Below are positions 1,459 through 15,984 of a DNA stretch of 16,313 nt, piece by piece. Within the stretch, counting starts at the first letter, position 1. Each line of letters opens with the position of its first letter. The notes beneath the pieces were generated by a model, which did not search any database, was not told the origin of the DNA, and saw only the letters and a list, made by a program, of their open reading frames with translations. The position numbers and the translations under genes were made by a program. The DNA is from a virus (Duplodnaviria; Heunggongvirae; Uroviricota; Caudoviricetes), in IMG/VR virus record IMGVR_UViG_2609459861_000002, positions 1 through 16,313 of that record; one strand, given 5' to 3'.

Positions 1459-2622
1459 TTACACATCATTAGTACCTTCCTTATTTTTTGACTGGGACAA
1501 ATTTGGGACCGATGGGTTCAGGATCGAGTCTATTTGCCGTGCGTGTTCGGTAAGGTGATTAGGTGCGAGGTGAGCATATCGACGAACCATTTCGATAGAC
1601 TCCCAGCCTCCCATTTCCTGTAACACTGACAACGGGACACCGGCTTGAACCAGCCAACTTGCCCAGGTGTGTCTCAAGTCATGAAATCTGAAATCATCAA
1701 TACCAGCTCGTCTCAGCGCCGCTTTCCAGGCTGTGTTTGCGTCATACCGCATCTTCCTGACTGTTGGCGCTTTCGTTCCGTCTGGTTTGGTACAGCTTTC
1801 CTTGTACACAAATACCCAACGGTGATGATTCCCGATTTGTTTTTTCAATACGCGACATGCAGTATCATTCAGCGCAACGCCAATTGCGCGGTTTGATTTA
1901 CTCTCTTCCGGGTTTATCCATGCCACCCGGCGCTGCATATCTATTTGTTGCCATTCAAGGTTGATGATGTTCGAGCGTCTTAAGCCTGTTGCCAGTGCAA
2001 ATTCAACAACAGACTTTAATGGCTCCGGACATTCATCAATCAGCCTTTGTGCTTCATGGGGCTCCAGCCAGCGGATCCGTTTATTCTTTGGTTGAGGCAC
2101 TTTAATAATTGGTGCCTTATCCAGCATTTTCCATTCACGCTCTGCGGCTCTTAGTAGGGCCTTTATAAATGAAAGATGCGTAGCCTTCGTTGCAACGGAC
2201 GCTGGTTTTGGCGTGTATTCTGGAACAGGTTTCCCTTTTTTTCTGCATGCTTCTGCCCTGAGTTTCCAGTTTTCCTCATGACGCCGGTTCGTCATTTTCT
2301 GCATTGCTGAATAAATTTTTGATTCAGTGATGTCTCTTAGTTGCATCCCTGCGAAATGTTGAAGCCAGAATCCGATCCGGCTTTTGTCATCGTCCAGTGA
2401 TTTCTTATGTGCTTTCTCTTCGAGCCACCTGACACACGCTTCCTCAAACGTCATATCAGGTATTTCACCAAGTTTGCTGACCCGCCATGCTTCAGCCTTT
2501 AGCTTGTCATGGAGCTCTGTCGCCTGCCTTTTGTCCTTTGTTCCAAGAGACTGTTTAAATCTTTTACCGTTCGGCAATGTGAAACTGGCGTACCATATTT
2601 CACTTCTGCGGAAGAGTGACAT
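1459..2622 (-). CDS. int: phage tyrosine integrase (lambdoid Int family)
   Basis: 387-aa ORF beginning [27 protein letters not shown], which I recognise as the IntD/IntF-type prophage integrase of E. coli; C-terminal HDLRHTWAS (HxxR) and RRYAHL (catalytic Tyr region). Stop codon lies 15 nt from the tRNA CCA end. Confidence 0.93.
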
Positions 2623-3755: not shown

Positions 3756-4133
3756 TCATGCAGCCTCCCGACGGGCAAGAATCCTTGAGCCGAACGCCAT
3801 CAACTCTCCACGATCAACGGTCGTAAAGTGGCAGTGTGTACGGGGGTATGGGTGCCAGATAATGAGCATCGAACCTTTATTATTTCCACTGACGGGTTTC
3901 TCAGTGAGTGGGTTAATAAATGCCAGTCGTCCTGCCGTGATGAATCTGACCTCACTGGCGGTTTGTATCGCTTCATGAAACCATCCGACAGATGTGTCAG
4001 CAGGCAATAACATTACACATCCCACACTACTGAATTTGTTTTCAGTGGCTGCCTTTTTCACAAAAGGGGAAATATTGCTGTATGGTGGATTCAACCAGAC
4101 ATAACCAGAGGCATATCTGGCTGAAAGAGGGGG
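3756..4133 (-). pseudogene. phage N6-adenine DNA methyltransferase (Dam family), 5'-truncated
   Basis: Translation contains the NPPY catalytic motif followed by MLLPADTSVGWFH..EVRFI.GRL.F.NP, as in phage Dam-type methyltransferases. Only 13 codons precede NPPY before an in-frame stop at 4134-4136, and there is no ATG; the track start is a TTG at the NPPY codon. The N-terminal part expected in this family is absent. Confidence 0.6.
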
Positions 4134-4143
4134 TTATTAAGGC

Positions 4144-4506
4144 GTGAATACCTACAGTATCACATTACCCTGGCCTCCGAGCAATAATCGCTATTACCGC
4201 CATAATCGCGGGCGCACGCACGTCAGTGCAGAGGGGCAGGCATACCGCGATAACGTCGCCCGAATCATTAAAAGCGCAATGCTGGATATCGGCCTGGCTA
4301 TGCCTGTGAAAATCCGCATTGAGTGCCACATGCCGGATCGCCGTCGCCGTGACCTGGATAATCTGCAAAAAGCCGCTTTTGACGCACTCACTAAAGCAGG
4401 TTTCTGGCTGGATGATGCTCAGGTCGTTGATTACCGCGTTGTGAAGATGCCTGTTACCAAAGGTGGGAGGCTGGAACTGACCATCACCGAAATTGGGAAT
4501 GAATGA
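4144..4506 (+). CDS. rusA: crossover junction endodeoxyribonuclease RusA (Holliday junction resolvase)
   Basis: 120-aa [27 protein letters not shown]...; I recognise it as nearly identical to E. coli prophage RusA. GTG start with GAGGGGG upstream. Confidence 0.93.
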
Positions 4507-4643: not shown

Positions 4644-4728
4644 AGTCAGAGATAACAATCAACTAATACTGTTTTGTTGATTTTTGCTTGTAATTGGCGT
4701 TCTGGTCTGATTTTTGTGGAGTAAGTTG

Positions 4729-5112
4729 ATGCGTGATATTCAGATGGTTCTTGAGCGTTGGGGAGCGTGGGCGGCTAATAATCATGAAGATGTGACCTGG
4801 TCGTCCATTGCCGCCGGTTTTAAGGGATTAATTACTTCAAAAGTAAAATCTCGCCCGCAATGTTGTGACGATGACGCGATGATTATTTGCGGGTGCATGG
4901 CCCGTCTGAAAAAGAACAACAGCGATTTGCACGATTTATTAGTAGATTATTATGTAGTCGGTATGACATTCATGTCACTGGCAGGTAAGCATTGCTGCTC
5001 TGATGGTTATATCGGGAAAAGGTTACAGAAGGCTGAGGGCATAATTGAAGGGATGTTAATGGCATTAGATATCCGGTTAGAGATGGATATCGTTGTTAAT
5101 AACTCTAATTAA
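4729..5112 (+). CDS. late-gene antiterminator Q (Q82/QuuD type)
   Basis: 127 aa from the ATG at 4729 ([22 protein letters not shown]...), with Cys clusters [12 protein letters not shown] and HCC typical of the Q zinc-binding fold; sits between the rusA/ylcG nin remnant and the lysis genes. Confidence 0.85.
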
Positions 5113-5301: not shown

Positions 5302-6399
5302 TTAGAACTGGTAAACCAGACCTACAGCAACGATGTCATCAGTGCTTACACCGAGTGCTTTAGTGAAGTCATTTTTGTCAAGCAGGTTGATTTTGTAATC
5401 AACGAAAGTAGACATATTTTTGTTGAAGTAATAGGTTGCACCTACATCAACATATTTGACTAAGTCCTGATCGCCCCATACTCCAAGATCCTTACCTTTA
5501 GATTGCAGGTAAGCAACGGACGGACGCAGACCGAAATCGAACTGATATTGTGCAACAGCTTCGAAGTTTTGGGCTTTATTAGCAACGAAGTGATCAGCAA
5601 ATACAGTCATATTCTGGGTTTCAGAATAGGTAGTGGCCAGGTAAATGTTGTTAGCGTCATATTTCAGACCTGCGGCCCAAACTTCTGCATTTTTACCGGA
5701 AGCAAATACTTCAGGAAGAACTTTCCCTGCATTAACTTGAGTGTCGGTACGATCAGATTTCGCATAAGTTGCACCGATACCGAATCCTTCGTATTCATAG
5801 GTAGCAGAGAAACCGAAGCCATCACCGTTACCTTCAGTGTAGTTATCGAAATCGCTACGATCGTTTTTGCCTTGGTACTGAGCAGCAAAGTTCAGACCAT
5901 CAACCAGACCAAAGAAGTCGTTGTTACGATAGGTTGCAACACCAGTTGCACGTTGAGTCATGAACACGTCGGTTTGAGTCCAAGTGTCACCACCGAATTC
6001 TGGCAGGACGTCAGTCCACGCACCGATGTCGTATGCTACACCGTAGTTACGGCCGTAATCGATGGAGCCGTAGTCACCGAATTTCAGGCCAGCGAAGGCA
6101 AGACGGGTTTTATCTTTGGAGGAACCTTGAGATTCAGCGCGGTTGCCTTTGAATTCATATTCCCACTGACCGAAACCAGTCAGTTGATCGTTGATTTGGG
6201 TTTCACCTTTGAAGCCAAGACGGGCATAAGTAGTATCACCATCATCTGCATCATTAGAGGAGAAGTAGTGCTTAGCATTAACTTTCCCGTACAGATCCAG
6301 CTTGTTACTGTCTTTATTATAAATTTCAGCTGCCTGAGCAGACATCGCCATCAGTACTGATGCAGCTACAGCAGAAATTGCCACTGTTAATTTTTTCAT
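5302..6399 (-). CDS. nmpC: outer-membrane general porin, prophage-encoded (NmpC/Lc/OmpC family)
   Basis: 365-aa ORF with signal peptide [30 protein letters not shown], porin-like Gly/Tyr/Asp-rich beta-barrel composition and C-terminal YQF. I recognise the N-terminal mature sequence as the NmpC/Lc-type phage porin. Intact, with no IS disruption. Confidence 0.93.
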
Positions 6400-6940: not shown

Positions 6941-6988
6941 ACGTTGTATTCCCTCAATTTACACCCGCTTTGTCTGCGAGGTGGGGTT

Positions 6989-7204
6989 ATGAAATCCATG
7001 GATAAGTTAACAACGGGTGTCGCCTATGGCACCTCAGCAGGTAGTGCCGGTTACTGGTTTTTACAGCTGCTCGATAAAGTCACGCCCTCACAGTGGGCGG
7101 CAATAGGTGTGCTGGGTAGTCTGGTATTTGGCTTGCTGACGTACCTGACAAACCTTTATTTCAAGATTAAAGAAGATAAGCGCAAGGCTGCGAGAGGTGA
7201 ATAA
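6989..7204 (+). CDS. class II holin (phage 21 S-type pinholin) with dual-start motif
   Basis: 71 aa, [26 protein letters not shown]...: two predicted TMDs, Met1-Lys2-Ser3-Met4 dual start, charged C-terminus; GAGGTGGGG SD 2-10 nt upstream. The longer track ORF starts at an upstream TTG. Confidence 0.9.
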
Positions 7205-7701
7205 TGCCTCCATCATTACGAAAAGCAGTTGCTGCTGCTATTGGTGGCGGAGCAATTGCTATAGCATCAGTGTTAATCACTGGCCCAAGTGGTAACGATG
7301 GTCTGGAAGGTGTCAGCTACATACCATACAAAGATATTGTTGGTGTATGGACCGTATGTCACGGGCATACAGGAAAAGACATCATGCTCGGTAAAACGTA
7401 TACCAAAGCAGAATGCAAAGCACTCTTGAATAAAGACCTTGCCACTGTCGCCAGACAAATTAACCCATACATCGAAGTCGATATACCGGAAACAACGCGC
7501 GGCGCTCTTTACTCATTCGTTTACAACGTGGGTGCTGGCAATTTCAGAACATCGACGCTTCTTCGCAAAATAAACCAGGGCGATATCAAAGGCGCATGTG
7601 ATCAGTTACGTCGCTGGACATATGCTGGCGGTAAGCAATGGAAAGGTCTCATGACTCGTCGTGAGATTGAGCGTGAAATCTGTTTGTGGGGTCAGCAATG
7701 A
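7204..7701 (+). CDS. SAR endolysin (T4-lysozyme-fold muramidase, phage 21 R-type)
   Basis: 165 aa; N-terminal Gly/Ala-rich weakly hydrophobic SAR segment [20 protein letters not shown] followed by the lysozyme motif GLEG..Y.D..G..T; start overlaps the holin stop (TAATG). Confidence 0.93.
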
Positions 7702-8159
7702 ACAGAGTAACCGCGATTATCTCCGCTCTGGTTATCTGCATCATCGTCGGCCTGTCATGGGCTGTTAATCATTACCGTGATAACGCCATTACCTACAAAG
7801 CCCAGCGCGACAAAAATGCCAGAGAACTGAAGCTGGCGAACGCGGCAATTACTGACATGCAGATGCGTCAGCGTGATGTTGCTGCGCTCGATGCAAAATA
7901 CACGAAGGAGTTAGCTGATGCGAAAGCTGAAAATGATGCTCTGCGTGATGATGTTGCCGCTGGTCGTCGTCGGTTGCACATCAAAGCAGTCTGTCAGTCA
8001 GTGCGTGAAGCCACCACCGCCTCCGGCGTGGATAATGCAGCCTCCCCCCGACTGGCAGACACCGCTGAACGGGATTATTTCACCCTCAGAGAGAGGCTGA
8101 TCACTATGCAAAAACAACTGGAAGGAACCCAGAAGTATATTAATGAGCAGTGCAGATAG
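7698..8159 (+). CDS. Rz i-spanin
   Basis: ATG at 7698 overlaps the endolysin stop (ATGA); N-terminal [21 protein letters not shown] then a charged coiled-coil-like periplasmic domain; closely resembles lambda Rz. Confidence 0.9.
7918..8100 (+). CDS. Rz1 o-spanin lipoprotein (embedded in Rz, +1 frame)
   Basis: 60-aa ORF wholly inside Rz; lipobox LVVVGC, proline-rich mature region [13 protein letters not shown]. Confidence 0.85.
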
Positions 8160-8190: not shown

Positions 8191-8484
8191 TTATTGTGAG
8201 CAATACACACGCGCTTCCAGCGGAGTATAAATGCCTAAAGTAATAAAACCGAGCAATCCATTTACGAATGTTTGCTGGGTTTCTGTTTTAACAACATTTT
8301 CTGCGCCGCCACAAATTTTGGCTGCATCAACAGTTTTCTCCTGTCCAATTCCCGAAACGAAGAAATGATGGGTGATGGTTTCCTTTGGTGTTACTGCTGT
8401 CGGTTTGTTTCCAACAGTAAACGTCTGTTGAGCACATCCTGTAATAAGCATTGCCAGAGCGGCAGAAAACAACATTTTTTTCAT
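8191..8484 (-). CDS. bor: Bor lipoprotein (serum-resistance-associated moron)
   Basis: 97 aa from MKKMLFSAALAMLITGC (lipobox ITGC); I recognise it as lambda Bor-like. Opposite orientation to the lysis genes, as in lambda. Confidence 0.9.
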   Translation of the reverse strand: MKKMLFSAALAMLITGCAQQTFTVGNKPTAVTPKETITHHFFVSGIGQEKTVDAAKICGGAENVVKTETQQTFVNGLLGFITLGIYTPLEARVYCSQ

Positions 8485-9341
8485 CTTATTATCCTGTATT
8501 GTTAAAAACAGCAGAATCCTATGTGACAACAATTAAACGATAGTTAAATGGATTGATGAAAATTAAAACTATATAGGTGTACGGTCAGACTATTGGAGGT
8601 AGTCTGGATTTGAATGTCAGTGTGTTGTCGGCATTATGGCAATGCAATTTGGATAAAGCGGGGATTAAAAAGATAGAGGCGAGCCGGTCAGGTAGAAATG
8701 AATCAGGCTCAAAGTGAAGCGGAAAAGGTCTTTGGCACAAACTGATGCTGCCATAATTACAGCCTGATGACTTGTGGAATGAAACATGTTGAACCTCCTT
8801 AATTGATGTTATTCGAGTGAGGAAGGCATTCTGTCCTCCTATACTGTCCAGTAAATCAAACAGGAAGCTTGTCTCACGTGTGAGACAAGCCTCTCCATTA
8901 GCGAGTTGTATTGATCACAACTCTTCAAAGAATTCATTACTGGGTAGATGAAAATAGTTTCACGATGAATGGAGGAGGCTATGTTGGTGGCTTCTTCATT
9001 GGAGTACATATGCCCCCACGAACCCCAAAAACCTGCCGTGTTCGCGGCTACCGCAATACCACCACAGATCCGTCAGGCTATTGCAAAAGCCACAAAAGCG
9101 AAGGCTGGAAGCAATACAAGCCGGGCCAGTCCTGTCATCAGCGCGGTTATGGTTCGCGGGGTTGTCCCTCATGCTCGCCAGTCCTGTGCGGGGGGGGGAA
9201 GAAACAGGACACTCACACAGATTTTTGTGGGTCGATGCTATTCCTTTCTGGATTATCCCGATGCCATTCATGCAAGGGCTGTATCAGACGTTCGTCATGG
9301 CTGTCAGGCTGACGGGTCCTCCCGGTGGGGGGGCCTGCCAC

Positions 9342-9528
9342 GGGGCGGGAGCGTCGCGGAAAAAGGCTAGTTTTTGCATTTTTATCGGCCACCATCATCT
9401 TTACATCTTATTGATTATTAATGATTATTTGTTTTTTGTATGTCGAATTGCGTGTTTTTTGTTCGACATCGAACGCGTTTTCTTAAAGTTGTTCGCACGA
9501 TGCATGTTTAAAGCTCTCCGGAGGAAAT
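9342..9528. other. candidate cos region (cosN-like core followed by A/T-rich cosB-like segment)
   Basis: CGGGGCGGGAGCGTCGCGG at 9341-9359 matches the lambda cosN core as I remember it (CGGGGCGGCGACCTCGCGG) in both flanks, differing in the central 5 nt; followed by an A/T-rich stretch with repeated TTCGA/TCGAA motifs, directly upstream of the small terminase gene. Confidence 0.4.
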
Positions 9529-10020
9529 ATGGATCATGAGTTGAAAAACCTGGTGCTGAATATTAATCAACTGGCGGCTTTATCTGGTCTGCACCGCCAG
9601 ACTGTCGTGGCAAGACTGAAAAACATTCGTCCCGCTGGTGGACATGACAAACTCAAGCTATACCGGTTGACCGATATTCTGACTGAATTTATGGGGTTAC
9701 CACCGCCGGTTGCTGAGGGCGAAATGGATCCACATGAACGCAAAGCCTGGTATCAGTCTGAACGTGAGCGTCTTAAGTTCGAACAGGAAACGGCACAACT
9801 CATTCCGGCCAGTGATGTCAGACGGGAGTTTGCCATCTGGGCAAAAGCGGTCGTGCAGGTGCTGGAGACATTACCGGATATTCTGGAACGTGACTGCGGC
9901 CTGCAGCCTGCTGCTGTGAGCCGTGTTCAGTCCATTATTGATGATCTGCGCGATCAGATAGCCCTGCGGGTGACCGAAGCAGGTGCGGATGATGAGGAGG
10001 AATTACAGCAGGAGGAGTAA
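9529..10020 (+). CDS. terminase small subunit (Nu1 family)
   Basis: 163-aa ORF with N-terminal HTH-like segment LNINQLAALSGLHRQTVVARLKNI and acidic C-terminus; stop overlaps the start of the large-terminase ORF (TAATG), the standard Nu1-A arrangement. Confidence 0.8.
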   Translation: MDHELKNLVLNINQLAALSGLHRQTVVARLKNIRPAGGHDKLKLYRLTDILTEFMGLPPPVAEGEMDPHERKAWYQSERERLKFEQETAQLIPASDVRREFAIWAKAVVQVLETLPDILERDCGLQPAAVSRVQSIIDDLRDQIALRVTEAGADDEEELQQEE

Positions 10021-11312
10021 TGCTGAATCAGGAAACCGCAAAGGCAGCACGAACCGATTCAGGTTATATCCTTCGCGCACCGAGACGAATGCGGGTTGCT
10101 GATGCCGTTGCTCAGTATATGCGAGTGCCCATGGGGGCCGGGAACTCAGTCCCGTGGGATCCGCTGGTGGCACCGTATGTTCTTGAGCCGATGAACTGCC
10201 TGGCCTCGCGTGAATACGACGCAGTGATATTTGTTGGTCCGGCACGAACCGGCAAGACTATCGGCCTGATTGACGGCTGGGTGATTTACAACGTGATTTG
10301 CGATCCTGCGGATATGCTGATCATTCAGATGACGGAGGAAAAAGCCCGCGAACACTCCAAAAAACGACTTGCCAGAACGTTTCGCGTCAGCCCGGAAGTG
10401 GTCAGTCGCCTGAGTCCGAACAAAAATGACAACAACGTTTATGACAGAACATTCCTTGCTGGCAACTACCTGAAAATCGGCTGGCCGTCAGTCAATATCA
10501 TGTCCTCATCAGATTATAAATGCGTGGCGCTGACGGATTATGACCGTTTTCCGGAAGATATTGATGGCGAGGGGGATGCCTTCTCTCTTGCCTCAAAACG
10601 TACCACCACATTTATGTCCAGTGGTATGACGCTGGTGGAGAGTTCCCCCGGCAGGGATGTGAAGGATGTGAAATGGCGACGGACTTCACCGCATGAGGCT
10701 CCACCAACCACGGGGATACTGTCGCTCTATAACCGTGGCGATCGCCGTCGCTGGTACTGGCCCTGTCCACACTGTGGTGAGTATTTTCAGCCCTGCGGCG
10801 ATGTGGTTGCTGGTTTCCGTGATATTGCCGATCCCGTGCTGGCAAGTGAGGCGGCTTATATTCAGTGTCCTTCCTGTTCAGGACGGATTATGCCTGAACA
10901 AAAACGTGAGCTGAACGGACGTGGGGTCTGGTTGCGGGATGGTGAATCCATCAATGCGGATGGCAGTCGTTATGGTGATCCCCGACGCTCACGTATTGCG
11001 TCATTCTGGATTCCACCCATTATCTTTAACGGAATAGCGTATAGCGATCCGGGAAGTGGTAATAACCCGGGAGGTACAAGATACACGGGTTATGGTTTTG
11101 AAGTTCGCAAAAACGGTGTATTAATCGCATCCAGAGAAACTAAAGGGGCCATTCCCGGTAGCTACAGTGCGGTTATTGATATGCCGAGTGGCAGGGGAAG
11201 CGTCACTCTGGAGTTTAAGGTTTTCCATAAAGGCAATCAGTGGGCAGGTAATATCACCGACTGTACGGTGATTGTGACCAAAAAAGCTGCTTCCGGCATC
11301 AGTATTCGTTGA
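10020..11312 (+). pseudogene. terminase large subunit (gpA family), N-terminal ATPase region only, fused in frame to about 100 unrelated codons
   Basis: Residues 1 to about 330 carry gpA-like landmarks (P-loop VGPARTGKT, CPHCGEYFQ zinc motif, GVWLRDG). Lambda gpA is about 640 aa; here the ORF ends at 430 aa and its last 100 residues do not resemble terminase. A hairpin-plus-T6 terminator and lom follow, which is the position of the J 3' end in lambda. Confidence 0.7.
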
Positions 11313-11333
11313 AGTTGTTATAACCCATATAAG

Positions 11334-11357
11334 GGCACCAGAAATGGTGCCTTTTTT
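11334..11357 (+). terminator. intrinsic terminator
   Basis: GGCACCA-GAAA-TGGTGCC stem-loop followed by TTTTTT. Confidence 0.7.
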
Positions 11358-11381
11358 ATTGCAGAAAAGCGAGAGGTAATT

Positions 11382-11981
11382 ATGCGTAAACTTTATGCCG
11401 CCATTTTGTCCGCAGCCATTTGTCTGGCCGTATCCGGTGCGCCTGCATGGGCATCTGAACATCAGTCCACGCTGAGCGCGGGGTATCTTCATGCCCGGAC
11501 CAACGTTCCCGGCAGCGATGATCTGAACGGGATTAACGTGAAATACCGTTATGAGTTTACGGACACACTGGGGCTGGTGACGTCATTCAGCTATGCAGGA
11601 GACAAGAATCGCCAGCTGACCCATTACAGCGATACCCGCTGGCATGAAGATTCCGTTCGTAACCGCTGGTTCAGCGTAATGGCGGGGCCGTCTGTGCGCG
11701 TGAATGAATGGTTCAGCGCGTATGCGATGGCGGGTATGGCTTACAGCCGTGTTTCGACTTTTTCCGGGGATTATCTCCGCGTAACTGACAACAAGGGGAA
11801 AACGCATGATGTGCTGACCGGAAGTGATGACGGTCGCCACAGCAACACGTCTCTGGCGTGGGGGGCTGGCGTGCAGTTTAACCCGACCGAATCCGTGGCC
11901 ATTGATATTGCTTATGAAGGCTCCGGCAGTGGCGACTGGCGCACTGACGGTTTCATCGTGGGGGTCGGTTATAAATTCTGA
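11382..11981 (+). CDS. lom: Lom outer-membrane protein (Ail/Lom/PagC family)
   Basis: 199 aa with signal peptide ending AWA/SEH and C-terminal IDIAYEGSGSGDWRTDGFIVGVGYKF, which I recall as identical to the lambda Lom C-terminus. Confidence 0.92.
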   Translation: MRKLYAAILSAAICLAVSGAPAWASEHQSTLSAGYLHARTNVPGSDDLNGINVKYRYEFTDTLGLVTSFSYAGDKNRQLTHYSDTRWHEDSVRNRWFSVMAGPSVRVNEWFSAYAMAGMAYSRVSTFSGDYLRVTDNKGKTHDVLTGSDDGRHSNTSLAWGAGVQFNPTESVAIDIAYEGSGSGDWRTDGFIVGVGYKF

Positions 11982-12008
11982 TTAGCCAGGTAACACAGTG
12001 TTATGACA

Positions 12009-12034
12009 GCCCGCCGGTTCAGGCGGGCTTTTTT
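12009..12034 (+). terminator. intrinsic terminator downstream of lom
   Basis: GCCCGCC-GGTTCA-GGCGGGC stem-loop followed by TTTTTT. Confidence 0.75.
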
Positions 12035-12045
12035 GTGGGGGGAAT

Positions 12046-15000
12046 ATGGCAGTAAAGATTTCAGGTGTACTGAAAGACGGCGCAGGTAAACCGGTACAGA
12101 ACTGCACAATCCAGCTGAAAGCAAAACGTAACAGCACCACGGTGGTGGCGAACACGGTGGCCTCAGAAAATCCGGATGAAGCCGGGCGTTACAGCATGGA
12201 CGTTGAGTACGGTCAGTACAGCGTTATTCTGTTGGTGGAAGGCTTCCCGCCATCGCATGCCGGGACCATCACCGTGTATGAAGACTCACAACCGGGTACG
12301 CTGAATGATTTTCTCGGTGCCATGACGGAGGATGATGTCCATCCGGAGGCACTGCGCCGCTTTGAACTGATGGTGGAAGAGGTGGCGCGTAACGCGTCCG
12401 CAGTGGCGCAGAACACAGCAGCCGCGAAGAAGTCAGCCAGCGATGCCGGCACATCAGCCCGTGAGGCGGCAACCCGTGCAACTGATGCTGCAGGCTCAGC
12501 ACGTGCAGCCAGCACGTCAGCCGGACAGGCCGCTTCGTCGGCTCAGTCAGCGTCTTCCAGCGCAGGAACGGCATCAACAAAGGCCACTGAAGCATCAAAA
12601 AGTGCTGCCGCTGCAGAGTCTTCAAAAAGCGCGGCAGCCACCAGTGCCGGTGCAGCGAAAACGTCAGAAACGAATGCCGCAGCATCACAAAAATCTGCGG
12701 CCACTTCTGCATCCACCGCGACCACGAAAGCGTCAGAAGCTGCCACCTCAGCCCGGGATGCGTCGGCTTCAAAAGTGGCGGCAAAATCATCAGAAACGAG
12801 CGCAGCCTCGAGCGCCGGCAGTGCAGCTTCCTCGGCAACGGCGGCAGGAAATTCCGCGAAGGCCGCAAAAACGTCTGAGATGAATGCGGATAACAGCGCA
12901 CAGGCGGCAGCAGACTCACAAACTGCATCGGCAAATTCCGCGACAGCAGCCAAAAAATCAGAAACCAACGCGAAAAATAGTGAGTCAGCAGCAAAGGTCA
13001 GCGAAACCAACGCTAAAGCGTCAGAGAACAAGGCGAAAGAATATCTCGACAAGGTCGGGGGACTCGTCAGCCCGATGACGCAATACGATTGGCCCGTTGT
13101 TACTGGTAATGAGTCTTTTTACATAAAGATCGCGAAACTTTCCGATCCCGGAAGCAACAATTGCCATGTAACGCTAATGGTTACTAACGGCGGTGACTAC
13201 AGCTCCCCTTACGGAAACATTGACTTTATCGAGATCTCGGCGCGCGGTCTGCCTTCTTCGCTTACTGCTGATAATGTATCTCGTTACCTGAGTATACGCC
13301 GTTTAGGGCCAACCGGGCTAATCAATAGCATGCAAATGCGTTACGGCCTGGTTAAAGATGATGGCTTTATTGAGGTTTGGGCCTTCCAGCGTGCATTTAT
13401 CAACGGCGCAAAGGTTGCGGTACTGGCGCAGACGGCACGCACGGAATTATACATTCCAGACGGATTTGTTAAGCAAACCGCCGCGCCTTCTGGATATGTT
13501 GAAAGCCCCGTTGTAAGGATTTACGACCAGTTAAACAAGCCGACTAAAGCAGATTTGGGCCTTTCTAATGCTATGCTTACAGGCGCTTTTGGTCTTGGCG
13601 GTAGCGGTCTTGTTTTGGATGGTAAAATGACCGATAAGGAACTACTACAAGAGCTAAGGGCGAAAGGTGGGTGTTTCTGGAGGTCAGGAAAACCAACAGG
13701 TAGCGAATCAACAATTTTCAGCCACGGTTCTGGTATATTCTCGCGGTGCGGCGATACGTGGTCAGCTATTAATATCGATTACGAAAGCGGTAGAGTAAAG
13801 ATTTACTCTAGTAACGATAATAGACTCAACAATGGTACTTTTAACATAAATGAGCTATACGGAACCAAATACAAGCCGTCGAAATCGGATGTTGGACTTG
13901 GTAACGTAACTAACGATGCGCAGGTGAAAAAATCCGGCGACATTATGTCAGGTGATCTGTCGATCACTAAAGCAACACCTTCACTATACCTGCGTTCAAA
14001 AAGTGGAACCGCCCATGTATGGTTCCAAAATGAGGATCAGTCGGAACGCGGCGTTATTTTTGCGCCTACAAATACTGATACGCTTGGCGAAGTTCACATC
14101 AGGGCTAAAAACGCAAAAGGTCAATCAAGTGGTGATTTTATTGTTCGTCACGACGGGATGGTTGAAGCCCGTGATCTCACATTAGCGGGTAAAACTAAAG
14201 GCGCAAAAGCAGAATTTGCAAACACAAGCACTAGCTCCGATGATACTACGGTAAGCATAAAAGGATCTCAGCATACTCCTCTGGTTTTAACGCGCAACAA
14301 CACAATTAAAAATTTATCCATTGGGTTTAAGGTTGATGACGTTGACCAAAAATATCTCGGCATATACGGTGACGGTGATTTGTATTTTGGTGGTTATTCT
14401 GACCACACAAAAAACAGCAAAGTAATTACACAAGCAATACTCGATAGCGGGGTAACGGTAGGCGGCAAAACAACATTTTCTGACCTTGCCACATTTAACG
14501 CAGGTATGTCTGGGCCTATCGAGCCGGAAGCCATTGAAGGCATGACTATCGATCTTAATGACCTTATCATTAAGTTCACGGATAAAGGTTCAGTTAAATA
14601 CTATCACTGCAAAACTGCCGGAGGCGGTTCGAATATTACCAATAAGCCTGACGGCGTAGGCGGCAACTTTTTGCTTCGTGTAGAGTCAATTCGTAAGGTT
14701 AGTGATTCAGATTATATAAACATGCAAACGCTGATTAGCGGCGACAAAGGACGCGTGCATGTTCGTTTTGTTACTAATGGTAATTGGACAGCATGGAGCG
14801 AGCATGTTGTTTCAGGATGGAATCAGGATGTGACCGTCAGGTCGTTAACCTCGACGACTCCATCAAAATTAGGCGGCGGGCGTGTTGATGTGCTGGGGAG
14901 TACGTCAGATTACAGTAGTATGAATTGTGCTGTGCGCGGTGTTGATAGCACTGGAACCAATTCGGCGTGGTCAGTAGGTACATCGAAAAACACGGGAAAA

Positions 15001-15804
15001 ATGTTGTGCCTTAAAAACCACAGAAGCAGCGCTCAAGTGCTGTTAAATGGCGATGATGGCGCGGTGCAACTACTAAGCGGTACTGTCAACGGTGCTACAG
15101 CACAGGCGCTAACCATCAACAAAGATGAGGTTAACTCAACTGCTGATTTAGTAATTAGAAAACAGTCAGGGACTGGCAATCGTTTTGTTTTAAAGAACGC
15201 AGGTAATGCAGAACTACCGTTTAACATCAGTGTATGGGGTTCAAGTGATCGACAAAACGTTTTTGAGGTTGGAACGTCTGCTGCGTATCTGTTTTATGCG
15301 CAAAGAACGCCAGCAGGCCAGTTGTTTGATGTAAATGGCGCTATTAATTGCACAACGCTGAATCAGTCATCAGACCGCGACCTTAAAGACGATATTCTCG
15401 TTATCAGCGACGCGACGAAAGCAATCCGCAAAATGAACGGGTACACCTACACGCTCAAGGAAAACGGCCTTCCTTATGCTGGCGTTATTGCACAGGAAGT
15501 AATGGAGGCGCTACCGGAAGCCGTAGGATCGTTTACTCGTTACGGTGAAGAATTGCAGGGTCCGACCATTGATGGCAACGAGCTACGCGAAGAAACGCGT
15601 TACCTCAATGTTGATTATGCGGCGGTGACTGGTTTACTTGTCCAGGTCGCCCGTGAAACAGATGATCGCGTTACCGCGCTGGAAGAGGAAAACACAACGC
15701 TACGTCAAAATCTGGCAACAGCAGACACCCGGATCAGCACTCTGGAAAATCAGGTAAGCGAACTGGTTGCACTTGTCCGGCAGTTAACAGGAAGCGAACA
15801 TTGA
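12046..15804 (+). CDS. stf: mosaic side tail fibre: lambda Stf-like N-terminus, divergent central domain, C-terminal intramolecular chaperone (peptidase S74-like) domain
   Basis: 1252-aa ORF. N-terminus MAVKISGVLKDGAGKPVQNCTIQLKA... is near-identical to lambda Stf as I recall it, followed by an Ala/Ser/Thr/Lys-rich repetitive shaft. Central region, from about residue 337, is unrelated. C-terminal 143 aa begin SS/DRDLK (Ser and Lys at i+5) and end in a heptad-like coiled coil, as in self-cleaving chaperone domains of endosialidase and T5 pb1-type fibres. Confidence 0.9.
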   Translation: MAVKISGVLKDGAGKPVQNCTIQLKAKRNSTTVVANTVASENPDEAGRYSMDVEYGQYSVILLVEGFPPSHAGTITVYEDSQPGTLNDFLGAMTEDDVHPEALRRFELMVEEVARNASAVAQNTAAAKKSASDAGTSAREAATRATDAAGSARAASTSAGQAASSAQSASSSAGTASTKATEASKSAAAAESSKSAAATSAGAAKTSETNAAASQKSAATSASTATTKASEAATSARDASASKVAAKSSETSAASSAGSAASSATAAGNSAKAAKTSEMNADNSAQAAADSQTASANSATAAKKSETNAKNSESAAKVSETNAKASENKAKEYLDKVGGLVSPMTQYDWPVVTGNESFYIKIAKLSDPGSNNCHVTLMVTNGGDYSSPYGNIDFIEISARGLPSSLTADNVSRYLSIRRLGPTGLINSMQMRYGLVKDDGFIEVWAFQRAFINGAKVAVLAQTARTELYIPDGFVKQTAAPSGYVESPVVRIYDQLNKPTKADLGLSNAMLTGAFGLGGSGLVLDGKMTDKELLQELRAKGGCFWRSGKPTGSESTIFSHGSGIFSRCGDTWSAINIDYESGRVKIYSSNDNRLNNGTFNINELYGTKYKPSKSDVGLGNVTNDAQVKKSGDIMSGDLSITKATPSLYLRSKSGTAHVWFQNEDQSERGVIFAPTNTDTLGEVHIRAKNAKGQSSGDFIVRHDGMVEARDLTLAGKTKGAKAEFANTSTSSDDTTVSIKGSQHTPLVLTRNNTIKNLSIGFKVDDVDQKYLGIYGDGDLYFGGYSDHTKNSKVITQAILDSGVTVGGKTTFSDLATFNAGMSGPIEPEAIEGMTIDLNDLIIKFTDKGSVKYYHCKTAGGGSNITNKPDGVGGNFLLRVESIRKVSDSDYINMQTLISGDKGRVHVRFVTNGNWTAWSEHVVSGWNQDVTVRSLTSTTPSKLGGGRVDVLGSTSDYSSMNCAVRGVDSTGTNSAWSVGTSKNTGKMLCLKNHRSSAQVLLNGDDGAVQLLSGTVNGATAQALTINKDEVNSTADLVIRKQSGTGNRFVLKNAGNAELPFNISVWGSSDRQNVFEVGTSAAYLFYAQRTPAGQLFDVNGAINCTTLNQSSDRDLKDDILVISDATKAIRKMNGYTYTLKENGLPYAGVIAQEVMEALPEAVGSFTRYGEELQGPTIDGNELREETRYLNVDYAAVTGLLVQVARETDDRVTALEEENTTLRQNLATADTRISTLENQVSELVALVRQLTGSEH
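12400..13050 (+). repeat. degenerate tandem coding repeats (Ala/Ser/Thr/Lys-rich shaft of the tail fibre)
   Basis: Recurring motifs KTSETNA, KSSETSA, KTSEMNA, KKSETNA, KVSETNA in the translation; GC-rich, and it generates long spurious ORFs in other frames and on the opposite strand. Confidence 0.6.
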
Positions 15805-15984
15805 TATCCTTCAAGCTCTGAAGGAGGCTGTTCCCGGTACGTTCAGACTGTTGTTGAGCTGGAGATCGCAACGGAGGAAGAAACCTCATTGCTGGAAGCC
15901 TGGAAAAAATATCGGGTGTTGCTGAACCGTGTTAATACAACAACTGCACCGGATATTGAGTGGCCAGAAGAACCTATAGGGTAA
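15805..15984 (+). pseudogene. tail fibre assembly protein (Tfa), 3' remnant without start codon
   Basis: The 60 codons immediately after the fibre TGA, in the same frame, end ...[36 protein letters not shown], which reads as a Tfa C-terminus; there is no ATG/GTG with an SD in this frame. Confidence 0.5.

Follow-up and report, generated by a model that had tools for sequence, protein, structure and literature searches.

The segment at approximately 9314–9500 of the window (the whole 16,313-nt stretch of viral DNA that was analysed) is very probably a bona fide lambda-type cos, with cosQ, cosN and cosB parts, lying in a DLP12-like prophage remnant. It is best viewed as a passive and recent relic, probably still cleavable, and not as an evolved mobilisation device. 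Sequence comparisons point to the mEp460, PhiR47_1 and cdtI lambdoid phages as the lineage from which this cos derives, a lineage that combines a small terminase subunit of the DUF1441 family with a large subunit of the gpA family.

cosQ, cosN and their intergenic setting

Positions 9340–9359 (+ strand) read ACG/GGGCGGGAGCGT/CGCGG, and were assigned from the sequence as a lambda-type cosN. The pattern ACGGGGCGGNNNNNTCGCGG occurs at one site in the window, 9340–9359, with 0 mismatches; the count expected in the window is 0.02 when up to 2 mismatches are allowed. Both the left half, GGGCGG, and the CG dinucleotides that flank the two nick positions are present. By homology, nicks are predicted at 9342/9343 on the top strand and at 9354/9355 on the bottom strand, and these would produce a 12-nt 5′ cohesive end at 9343–9354.

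A first-pass annotation, made from the sequence alone, had described a match to both flanks of the lambda cosN with a different central 5 nt. Both flanks are indeed identical to those of lambda (…ACG/GGGCGGCGACCT/CGCGG), and four of the five bases in the central block differ (GAGCG in the window, CGACC in lambda). The cohesive end differs from that of lambda at positions 7, 8, 9 and 11, while its sole difference from that of Gifsy-1 (GGGCGGCAGCGT) is at position 7. In lambda-like cosN sites, variation is found at bp 7–12, and cosQ and bp 1–6 are conserved (PMC4669245). The differences observed for the window are confined to bp 7–12 and therefore fit this known pattern.

The GenBank records for cdtI and Tritos, as deposited, start with GGGCGGGAGCGT and end with ...CCACG, which is exactly the junction found in the window. 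The record for mEp460_4F5 starts 5 nt upstream and is without 3 nt inside the cohesive-end region, a deviation that may be an assembly artefact; Mathieu et al. 2020 contains nothing on the termini of mEp460_4F5. The same 27-nt cosN is present in at least 120 IMG/VR viral contigs, and no mention of the exact 12-mer GGGCGGGAGCGT was found in the phage literature searched. A chance match of cosN is rejected on the low expected count together with the identity to phage genome termini.

The packaging-termination element was located upstream of cosN. The heptamer GGGTCCT at 9314–9320 (+) is identical to lambda cosQ, is present as a single copy in the whole window, and precedes the predicted top-strand nick by 28 nt, compared with 30 nt in lambda. 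It is invariant across 11 related phages and Gifsy-1, and shows zero variation among 43 distinct sequences of type A (the types are those of the small terminase, TerS, described below). The earlier proposal of a real cos site is thus upheld by the alignment with the cosQ-cosN segments of lambda and Gifsy-1 and by the coincidence with the cdtI and Tritos record junction. The position proposed for cosN also holds, but the site begins further upstream than had been proposed, with cosQ outside the annotated range. The spacer that follows cosN, CGCGGAAAAAGGCTAGTTTTTGC (9355–9377, +), is equivalent to lambda I2 by position only, and hardly varies between TerS types A, B and C.

The cos is intergenic and lies immediately upstream of terS-terL (gpA family). 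Mechanically called ORFs do cover cosN (8969–9370 and 9081–9539 on the + strand, 9213–9398 on the − strand). A cosN inside a gene is nevertheless rejected: RefSeq annotates no CDS at cosN in prophages that are 93–99% identical, ORF 8969–9370 gave no Pfam match, nor did the other ORFs over cosN, and homologues of the cos region differ through 1-nt, frame-breaking indels. PhiR47_1 and mEp460 have 'hypothetical proteins' annotated across cos, but these resemble artefacts of gene calling. The two results that the first-pass annotation had named as fatal to a cos site, a failure to align with any known cos region and a location within coding sequence, were looked for, and neither was obtained.

A remnant of an HNH endonuclease gene is situated further upstream, at 9010–9159 (+). 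It is a pseudogene comprising the first ~50 codons and matches phrog_144 HNH endonuclease (E 1e-8); a 99%-identical stretch in strain MS20653 carries the RefSeq annotation 'HNH endonuclease, incomplete, missing C-terminus'. An HK97-style, HNH-dependent cos was considered and rejected, as the upstream HNH is a 50-codon pseudogene and occurs upstream of cos in intact prophages too. Homology of the window to PhiR47_1 begins at 9142. A promoter and terminator scan of 8500–9700 yielded none that exceeded the shuffled expectation, and an apparent 'terminator' at 9460–9475 is actually the R1-like palindrome described in the next section.

The cosB-like segment and the terminase genes

The G+C content is 80% at 9300–9359 and 34% at 9360–9528, compared with 48% for the whole window. 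TTCGA is found three times within 31 nt of the latter segment, at 9462 (+) and, as the reverse complement, at 9443 and 9469; there are 25 occurrences on both strands of the whole 16.3 kb. An A/T-rich segment with repeated TTCGA motifs, noted earlier as the place where cosB would lie, is accordingly present as described.

R3-like, IHF-like, inverted R2-like and R1-like elements occur in this order at matching distances in 11 phages, where some of the boxes are near-matches to motifs that were defined post hoc. Assignment as R boxes and as an IHF site is likewise a post-hoc reading, and the elements are given here as predicted sites. The R3-like box, CACCATCATC (9390–9399, +; +48 to +57 from the nick), is a candidate TerS-binding site, and each of the 11 phages compared has a TCRYCAYC-type box at +42 to +52. 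An R3-I1-R2-R1 layout and a 47 ± 2 bp rule have been described (PMC9026076), and the distance of the R3-like box in the window fits that rule. The IHF-like site, CATCTTATTGATT (9404–9416, +), has one mismatch to the consensus YAANNNNTTGATW and takes the position equivalent to lambda I1. The perfect IHF consensus is found at the equivalent position (+61/62) in the mEp460, 569R4, phi458, 1720a-02, CP-1639 and cdtI types. In the 43 type-A sequences the N positions of this site vary and TAA and TTGAT are almost invariant, one position of TTGAT being changed in 3 of the 43.

The putative inverted R2-like box, ATGTCGAAT (9440–9448, −; reverse complement ATTCGACAT), forms an 8-nt perfect inverted repeat with 9462–9469. 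An inverted box of the relaxed TCGACAYY type was found at +95 to +98 in nine of 11 cos regions; in the window and in PhiR47_1 the corresponding box lies at +98 to +106, one mismatch from the relaxed pattern. The R1-like box, GTTCGACATC (9461–9470, +), includes a TTCGA motif, and a direct TCRNCAYY box is present at +118 to +123 in 11/11 phages. An extra direct copy, GTTCGCACG (9491–9499, +), belongs to direct-repeat family D1 and is confined to TerS types A and B. Conservation of the cosB-like segment among the 43 type-A sequences is footprint-like. The R3-like, R2-like and IHF-like elements of the window each have one mismatch to the relaxed consensus, and the same state is seen in the live phage PhiR47_1. 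Four substitutions relative to the type-B consensus are specific to the window, and none of them falls in cosQ, cosN, an R box or the IHF core.

The terS gene (9529–10020, +) encodes an intact protein of 163 aa with a 'type B' DNA-binding domain, identical at 163/163 positions to the TerS of phage PhiR47_1. It matches Pfam DUF1441 (E 5e-44), and its best PHROG match is phrog_141 'terminase small subunit' (E 3e-77). No match to Pfam Phage_Nu1 (PF07471) was obtained, and BLASTP against lambda Nu1 gave no alignment. Cross-matches over near full length were observed, of the window TerS to phrog_57 (Nu1) at 8e-9 and of lambda Nu1 to phrog_141 at 6e-8, and in hhalign DUF1441 TerS and Nu1 are colinear over 146 columns (E 3e-4), but with a probability of just 39%. 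These comparisons suggest that TerS is a distant relative of Nu1. The earlier description of an intact, Nu1-type small subunit is therefore correct as to intactness, and 'Nu1-type' appears to hold only as distant homology or analogy. No solved structure resembling TerS was matched in a PDB search, and scarcely any mention of DUF1441 was found in the literature.

Sequence comparison of types A, B and C indicates that cosB co-varies with the DNA-binding domain (DBD) of TerS. Between types A and B, TerS residues 1–62 are 68% identical and residues 63–163 are 98% identical; cosB is 63% identical, cosQ-cosN is 96% identical, and the TerL N-termini are identical. Region 9142–11011 is 98.9% identical to the isolated phage PhiR47_1, and 9300–9530 is 97.8% identical to that phage, with the same cosB type. 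It would appear that this lineage possesses three or more TerS-DBD/cosB specificity types, all built on a common cosQ-cosN-TerL chassis.

The large terminase gene is broken. A chimeric ORF, terL′-′J (10020–11312, +), consists of TerL residues 1–331 followed, in the same reading frame, by the C-terminal ~100 residues of the tail-tip protein J. The chimera matches the 700-aa TerL over residues 1–331 only (328/331 identical), and its Pfam domains are GpA_ATPase (41–304) and Ig_GpJ_C (350–429), the latter from the receptor-binding C-terminal part of J. The Pfam domain GpA_nuclease, which occupies 326–644 in the 700-aa homologue, is absent from it. The gpA-family architecture of ATPase, endonuclease and portal-binding end is consequently incomplete, with the C-terminal part replaced by Ig_GpJ_C. 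The first-pass annotation had recognised the loss of the nuclease and the C-terminal half; the gene is not, however, merely truncated, but fused in frame to the C-terminus of J. The deletion junction lies at 11011/11012 (…TTCTGGAT/TCCACCC…), with a 2-nt (AT) microhomology, and gave 0 matches in 5,426 complete E. coli genomes and GTDB species representatives.

At least 84 complete E. coli genomes harbour a satellite of ~10.6 kb that has integrated into terL of related phages at a 7-bp core, CTGGATG. It carries two cos sites, a ClpP-capsid fusion and a DUF1441 TerS of its own, together with an integrase, an AlpA-like regulator, a D5-type primase and SSB. The literature searched yielded no account of a satellite residing in terL. 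The deletion endpoint in the window (…CTGGAT/TCC…) falls inside the 7-bp att core of this satellite. On the J side, CATTATTCC matches the att core at only 3/7 positions, and a site-specific origin of the deletion is on this account unproven.

The prophage remnant and the possible uses of its cos

The order of the element is proA, tRNA-Thr (1369–1444), int, RusA, Q, porin, holin/lysozyme/Rz, bor, cos, terS, terL′-′J, lom and stf. The interval from int (1459–2622) to Q (4714–5112) encodes nothing more than an HTH_17 protein, DUF4222, TraR, a truncated Dam and RusA; no primase/rep, replication or repressor/immunity genes were found in it. Downstream in the packaging direction are lom (11382–11981, +; Pfam Ail_Lom) and the side tail-fibre gene stf (12046–15804, +; Pfam phage_tail_N and Peptidase_S74), and the J-lom-stf region is 99.2% identical to strain EJN001. 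The TerL nuclease domain and the portal, head and tail genes are missing, in agreement with the earlier statement that the element is unable to package itself. No second cos is present within the window.

These features are those of a DLP12-type defective lambdoid prophage: tRNA/att integration, a Q-lysis-cos-terS order, a broken terL and the loss of morphogenesis genes. Of the features of a PICI-type satellite, an own integrase, regulator and primase/replication module is not present. A helper-type cos with an own specificity protein and no functional TerL is formally present (cos 9314–9500, terS), but this is equally expected of a freshly deleted prophage.

In a complete phage, by analogy with lambda, the N-terminal helix-turn-helix domain of TerS would bind the R-like boxes and IHF would bend the DNA between R3 and R2. 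TerL would thereby be placed to nick cosN 12 nt apart, generating the end 5′-GGGCGGGAGCGT, and packaging would proceed rightwards, through terS, terL and beyond, up to the next cosQ-cosN. In the remnant, a single deletion of the ~27-kb class would account for the loss of all sequence between terL codon 332 and a point close to the end of the J gene. The immunity and replication region is missing as well; what the element keeps is int, Q, the lysis genes, cos and terS. As the TerL nuclease and the morphogenesis genes are gone, the element can neither cut nor package its own DNA. As cos and terS are 98–100% identical to those of live phages, with no predicted functional box changed, they are best regarded as recent relics.

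A co-resident or superinfecting type-B phage would be expected to cut this cos, and a type-A phage might cut it too, via the remnant TerS acting on the identical TerL N-terminus. Cutting would probably lead to a chromosomal double-strand break, which would stimulate recombination with the helper in the way shown for lambda and DLP12, and to abortive in-situ packaging of rightward DNA. To terminate packaging, lambda-like terminases require a second, identically oriented cosQ-cosN situated roughly one genome length further downstream; this step depends on cosQ and cosN and not on cosB (PMC4669245). Efficient transduction from the remnant would need a second cos 0.75–1.05 genome lengths downstream. 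Packaging in trans, an idea that the first-pass annotation had raised with caution, is reasonable in mechanism as far as initiation goes, since the type-B TerS/cosB is paired with the same TerL as is the commoner type A, and a natural satellite uses such a kit. With no second cos and no replication genes to make concatemers, productive transfer of the remnant is unlikely without further conditions.

Three other readings of these data were considered. It is very unlikely that the string only resembles cosN by chance or through decay, and that the site is dead and no longer cleavable. The four substitutions relative to the type-B consensus could be taken as signs of decay, as could the R3-, R2- and IHF-like boxes, each of which is one base off the relaxed family consensus; yet identical deviations are found in the isolated phages PhiR47_1, PhiR40_1 and PhiR55_1, and the substitutions lie in spacers that are variable among live phages as well. 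The cosN match has a chance expectation of 0.02, and cosQ, spacing and cosN are all intact. That the deletion is instead the scar of a satellite-helper encounter is unlikely. Aberrant integrase recombination or breakage at att would then have made the deletion, and cos(B) with TerS(B) would still be cut and packaged by type-A helpers; if this were true, such remnants would be minimal helper-dependent donors of adjacent chromosomal DNA.

It is quite unlikely, too, that cos(B) and TerS(B) have been retained so that helpers, type-A phages among them, package the element or adjacent chromosome, in the manner of redirection by SaPI TerS or PICI Rpp. A TerS(B)-TerL(A) holoenzyme is plausible, given that the C-terminal two-thirds of TerS(B) and TerS(A) are 98% identical and the TerL N-termini are identical; terS sits in an apparently intact Q-dependent late operon, and a natural satellite with cos and its own DUF1441 TerS, but no TerL, exists in relatives. 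The window, however, holds neither a replication module nor a second cos, and without a downstream cosQ-cosN a lambda-like motor stalls, giving non-infectious particles (PMC4669245). The element is also below the packageable unit size unless multimerised. The occurrence of the terL′-′J junction in 0 of the 5,426 complete E. coli genomes argues that the element is not spreading, and its near-identity to live phages suits recent decay better than long-term selection.

Significance and relation to known systems

The significance of a passive cos in a recently deleted prophage is in itself modest. A compatible terminase can cut such cos sites and so break the chromosome; recombination is concentrated at them, returning lysis and packaging genes to live phages, and in-situ packaging could start from them. 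Two by-products are of wider use than the remnant. The TerS/cosB types offer a natural system, comparable to lambda/21, in which to study the packaging specificity of DUF1441 small terminases, an unstudied family. The satellite that sits in the large-terminase gene of a phage presumed to be its helper, with its own cos and DUF1441 TerS, merits its own study.

The cos in the window resembles that of lambda in its identical cosQ heptamer, its location directly upstream of terS-terL, its gpA-family TerL, and the inferred cosB layout of a direct box at ~+48, an IHF site, an inverted box and a direct box. It differs from lambda in its distance from cosQ to the nick (28 nt versus 30 nt), in a cosB sequence that is unalignable, and in a DUF1441/phrog_141 TerS that is only distantly related to Nu1. 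Gifsy-1 of Salmonella, listed among lambda-like cos phages by Feiss et al. (PMC4669245), has an identical cosQ and an end, GGGCGGCAGCGT, that is off at position 7 only, but it has a TerS of the Nu1/phage-21 type and a different cosB. The phages cdtI, Tritos, mEp460 and PhiR47_1 have cosQ and cosN identical to those of the window; they are, in contrast, complete phages with a TerL of 699–700 aa, and cdtI (type C) and mEp460 (type A) have other TerS DNA-binding domains and cosB.

The PICI EcCICFT073 (cos and Rpp) and the terL satellite of EJN001 are similar to the remnant in combining a helper-type cosQ-cosN with an own DNA-recognition protein and no TerL (PMC9026076). Unlike the remnant, they have an own integrase-alpA-primase module, and excise and replicate on induction. 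DLP12 and Qin of E. coli K-12, in which the order is Q-lysis-cos-nohD (Nu1 homologue)-truncated A, are remnants of the same kind: they too have a cos and an intact small terminase, while the large terminase is broken and head and tail genes are absent. DLP12 keeps cos-nohD-A′, its nohD is functional in lambda, and half of the lambda × DLP12 recombinant junctions adjoin cos (PMC3945230). The remnant is distinct from DLP12 in its terminase module, which is of the DUF1441/mEp460 type and not of the lambda Nu1 type, and in a deletion that fuses terL to J in frame; a sister allele of the same thrW prophage, in strain W409, has nohD and an independent gpA′-′J fusion. The remnant is thus an ordinary phage fossil, one more DLP12/Qin-like cryptic lambdoid prophage that has kept its cos and small terminase.

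The cos site and its flanking sequence

The pattern ACGGGGCGG-N5-TCGCGG was found once in the window, at 9340–9359 and without mismatches; if as many as two mismatches are tolerated, chance alone would give 0.02 matches. The lambda cosN region reads …GGGTCCTTTCCGGTGATCCGACAGGTTACG/GGGCGGCGACCT/CGCGGG and that of the window …GGGTCCTCCCGGTGGGGGGGCCTGCCACG/GGGCGGGAGCGT/CGCGGA, the bases of the two cohesive ends being unlike at positions 7, 8, 9 and 11. The first-pass annotation had described lambda flanks around a differing centre, which is correct, but the site begins upstream of the coordinates given there (9342–9528), as the lambda cosQ heptamer, GGGTCCT, which had been missed, is located at 9314–9320 (its sole copy in the window). 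The distance from cosQ to the nick, whose position is predicted by homology, is 28 nt, as compared with 30 nt in lambda.

The GenBank records of phages cdtI (AB285204) and Tritos (OV696610) end in …CCTGCCACG and start with GGGCGGGAGCGTCGCGGAAAAAGG. The junction so formed coincides exactly with the one that lambda predicts, which supports the presence of a real cos. The exact 27-nt cosN was observed in at least 120 IMG/VR viral contigs. Gifsy-1, which Feiss and colleagues class as a lambda-like cos phage (PMC4669245), has the end GGGCGGCAGCGT, a single base unlike that of the window. Natural variation in lambda-like cosN is concentrated in bp 7–12, and cosQ, bp 1–6 and the nick-flanking CG dinucleotides are all conserved (PMC4669245); the window fits this pattern. 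An analogous cos inference for mEp213 and LLS (GGGCGGCGCGCT; PMC12315714) gave a sequence that aligns with the window cos. Alignment to known cos regions, the kind of check that had been proposed, shows agreement with lambda and Gifsy-1 over cosQ–cosN and with the cdtI/Tritos record junctions. The record of phage mEp460_4F5 (LR595868.1; L001:1–30 and the end of L002) opens 5 nt upstream of the predicted nick, and 3 nt (TCG) present in all other members are missing from its cohesive-end region (GGGCGGGAGCG, the gap, then CGG), possibly an assembly artefact at physical ends.

The alternative that the cosN-like match lies within a coding sequence is not borne out. Three mechanical ORFs overlap cosN. 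No family match was obtained for ORF 8969–9370, the stretch from the HNH remnant to terS bears no RefSeq annotation in either the 99%-identical (MS20653) or the 93%-identical (EJN001) prophage, and single-nucleotide indels separate homologous cos regions. The HNH endonuclease gene upstream of cos (9010–9159) is a 50-codon pseudogene that intact prophages also carry, so HK97-style HNH-assisted cleavage is not involved.

Eleven cos regions of phages with DUF1441 terminases were aligned from cosQ to the start of terS. The same element order, counted from the nick, was observed in all 11: a conserved spacer, CGCGGAAAAAGGCTAGTTTTT, directly after cosN, a direct TCRYCAYC-type box at +42 to +52, an IHF consensus, YAANNNNTTGATW, at +61/62, an inverted box at +95 to +98 and a direct box at +118 to +123. 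This cosB motif was defined after the data had been viewed, and the R-box and IHF roles are putative. The inverted box has the exact relaxed pattern in 9 of the 11 and is a one-mismatch near-match in the window and PhiR47_1. In the window, the predicted elements are a first direct box, CACCATCATC (9390–9399), an IHF-like site, CATCTTATTGATT, with one mismatch to the consensus (9404–9416), the inverted box, ATGTCGAAT (9440–9448), a direct box, GTTCGACATC (9461–9470), and a further copy at 9491–9499. The boxes at 9440–9448 and 9461–9470 form an 8-nt perfect inverted repeat and hold the TTCGA motifs of the A/T-rich segment noted previously, which was confirmed: the 169 nt downstream of cosN have a G+C content of 34%, with three copies of TTCGA/TCGAA within 31 nt. 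Across 43 distinct sequences of the type termed A below, the boxes scarcely vary. In the IHF motif, variation falls on the N positions and the specified bases are almost invariant, 3 of the 43 sequences having a single altered position in TTGAT. For lambda, phi80, 21 and Gifsy-1, the order R3-I1-R2(inverted)-R1 has been described, with R3 approximately 47 bp from the nick (PMC9026076), and the predicted window cosB matches it in both respects.

Terminase genes and prophage setting

The window is Escherichia coli-like DNA, with a defective lambdoid prophage after proA (1–1254) and tRNA-Thr (1369–1444). An integrase gene (1459–2622, minus strand) is followed by an HTH_17 excisionase-like gene, DUF4222, TraR, a truncated early-region phage Dam methyltransferase gene (3756–4094, minus strand; profile positions 66–168 of 169), RusA (4144–4506) and Q (4714–5112). 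The lysis genes are separated from Q by a full-length Gram-negative porin gene (5302–6399, minus strand), the place that nmpC occupies in DLP12, a cryptic lambdoid prophage of E. coli K-12. Holin/lysozyme/Rz (about 6944–8159) and bor (8191–8532, minus strand) precede the cos–terminase region, and lom (11382–11981) and a side tail-fibre gene (12046–15804) come after it. No repressor, replication, head or tail-shaft genes were found in this prophage. The left 7.8 kb of the window is 96–99% identical to the thrW prophage of strain W409, 8626–11011 is 99% identical to an intact prophage of MS20653, 9142–11011 is 98.9% identical to the isolated phages PhiR47_1, PhiR40_1 and PhiR55_1, and 11010–15965 is 99.2% identical to J-lom-stf of strain EJN001.

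The small terminase subunit had been annotated as intact and Nu1-type. The terS product (9529–10020) is indeed intact, being identical to PhiR47_1 TerS at 163 of 163 residues, but it belongs to Pfam DUF1441 and phrog_141 ('terminase small subunit'), and BLASTP revealed no similarity to lambda Nu1. Profile matches were reciprocal and spanned almost the whole of each protein: the window TerS hit phrog_57, the Nu1 family, at 8e-9, and lambda Nu1 hit phrog_141 at 6e-8. A small profile-profile alignment was colinear (E 3e-4, probability 39%). 'Nu1-type' is therefore appropriate solely as a statement of distant relationship.

The large subunit has been cut down, as had been reported. A chimeric terL'-'J ORF (10020–11312) retains TerL residues 1–331 (328 of 331 matched), which comprise the ATPase domain, and beyond them the same frame stays open through the final ~100 residues of the tail-tip protein J. 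The junction, …TTCTGGAT/TCCACCC… at 11011/11012, has a 2-nt microhomology and was absent from 5,426 complete E. coli genomes and from the GTDB representatives. The window is thus shown to have an intact cos and terS and a dead terL. In W409 (L010:12624–14966, the same thrW prophage), an independent gpA'-'J fusion, in frame and 780 aa long, lies behind a lambda-type nohD (Phage_Nu1); it combines the ATPase and half of the nuclease domain with a tail-tip domain and the C-terminus of J. The W409 prophage is a sister allele of the window prophage, with the same outcome from a different deletion.

Specificity types and a satellite within terL

At least three TerS DNA-binding-domain/cosB types were observed downstream of identical cosQ–cosN sequences (window, L001, L005 and IMG/VR loci L022–L145): type A, the commonest (mEp460), type B (window and PhiR47_1) and type C (cdtI). 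Types A and B share 68% identity in TerS residues 1–62 (the helix-turn-helix domain) and 98% in residues 63–163, 63% in cosB (+36 to +135) and 96% in cosQ-cosN-spacer; their first 330 TerL residues are identical. The type-specific segments of the window are terS 9529–9715 and cosB 9378–9500. Its four private substitutions all lie in spacers: the cosQ–cosN interval has one and the intervals between boxes have three. These types resemble lambda and 21 in having one cutting and translocating enzyme with an exchangeable recognition domain and site, and represent a comparable natural packaging-specificity series in the unstudied DUF1441 family.

In three IMG/VR loci (L030:1768–, L037 and L144), terL ends at codon 331 and is followed by a P4-type integrase gene; at least 84 complete E. 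coli genomes have this terL'/int junction. In the genome of EJN001 (L147, NZ_CP086338.1, 10988–21640), a satellite-like insertion of ~10.6 kb follows codon 331 of terL in an otherwise complete, mEp460-type prophage. Its genes comprise an Icd-like one and those for a P4-type integrase, an AlpA-like HTH protein, Bro-N, a D5-type primase, SSB, a ClpP-major capsid fusion and a DUF1441 TerS of its own, distinct in the N-terminal domain; two direct cosQ–cosN sites are also present. As the core CTGGATG is common to attL and attR of the insertion, terL would be restored if it were excised precisely. No published description of a satellite within terL was found in the searchable literature. The satellite relies on cos and a small terminase and borrows the large one, the strategy imagined in the first-pass annotation. 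Its first cos (L147:17697–17990) leads into a cdtI-type (type C) cosB and the decayed start of a type-C terS; the second, 2.5 kb downstream and with the cohesive end GGGCGGGAGCGG, precedes the intact satellite TerS.

The deletion endpoint in the window, …CTGGAT/TCCACCC… (11005–11012), falls within the 7-bp att core of the satellite (L147:10988–11003), for which the post hoc chance is roughly 0.3% for a random endpoint in the 2.1-kb terL. The overlap could be a coincidence or reflect a deletion seeded by the satellite integrase; the J-side sequence matches the core at only 3 of 7 positions, so that an integrase-mediated origin is possible but unproven. The three-specificity TerS/cosB system and the satellite are leads of more interest than the cos relic itself.

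Expected behaviour of the relic

The remnant would presumably be unable to cleave its cos by itself. Cleavage there, and the start of rightward packaging (terS, lom, stf, then host DNA), would be expected of a type-B helper and might also be achieved by a type-A helper, the resident TerS acting with the identical TerL of type A. Lambda-like terminases require a downstream cosQ–cosN for termination, independent of cosB, and packaging begun at a lone prophage cos stalls at the full head, yielding non-infectious particles (PMC4669245). The window has neither a second cos nor a replication module from which concatemers could arise, which makes productive transfer of the remnant unlikely. The original interpretation, self-packaging lost and packaging in trans possible in principle, is supported, with these caveats.

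The feature is a lambda-like cos kept in a DLP12-type remnant, a known kind. In DLP12, cos and nohD persist beside a truncated A, the small-subunit gene works in lambda, and recombination with lambda occurs at high frequency, half of the junctions adjoining cos (PMC3945230). The window locus is therefore read as a relic of recent origin, passive but probably still cleavable, that may donate Q-lysis-cos-terS sequences to incoming phages. DLP12 is its closest analogue, and the documented outcome there is recombination (PMC3945230).
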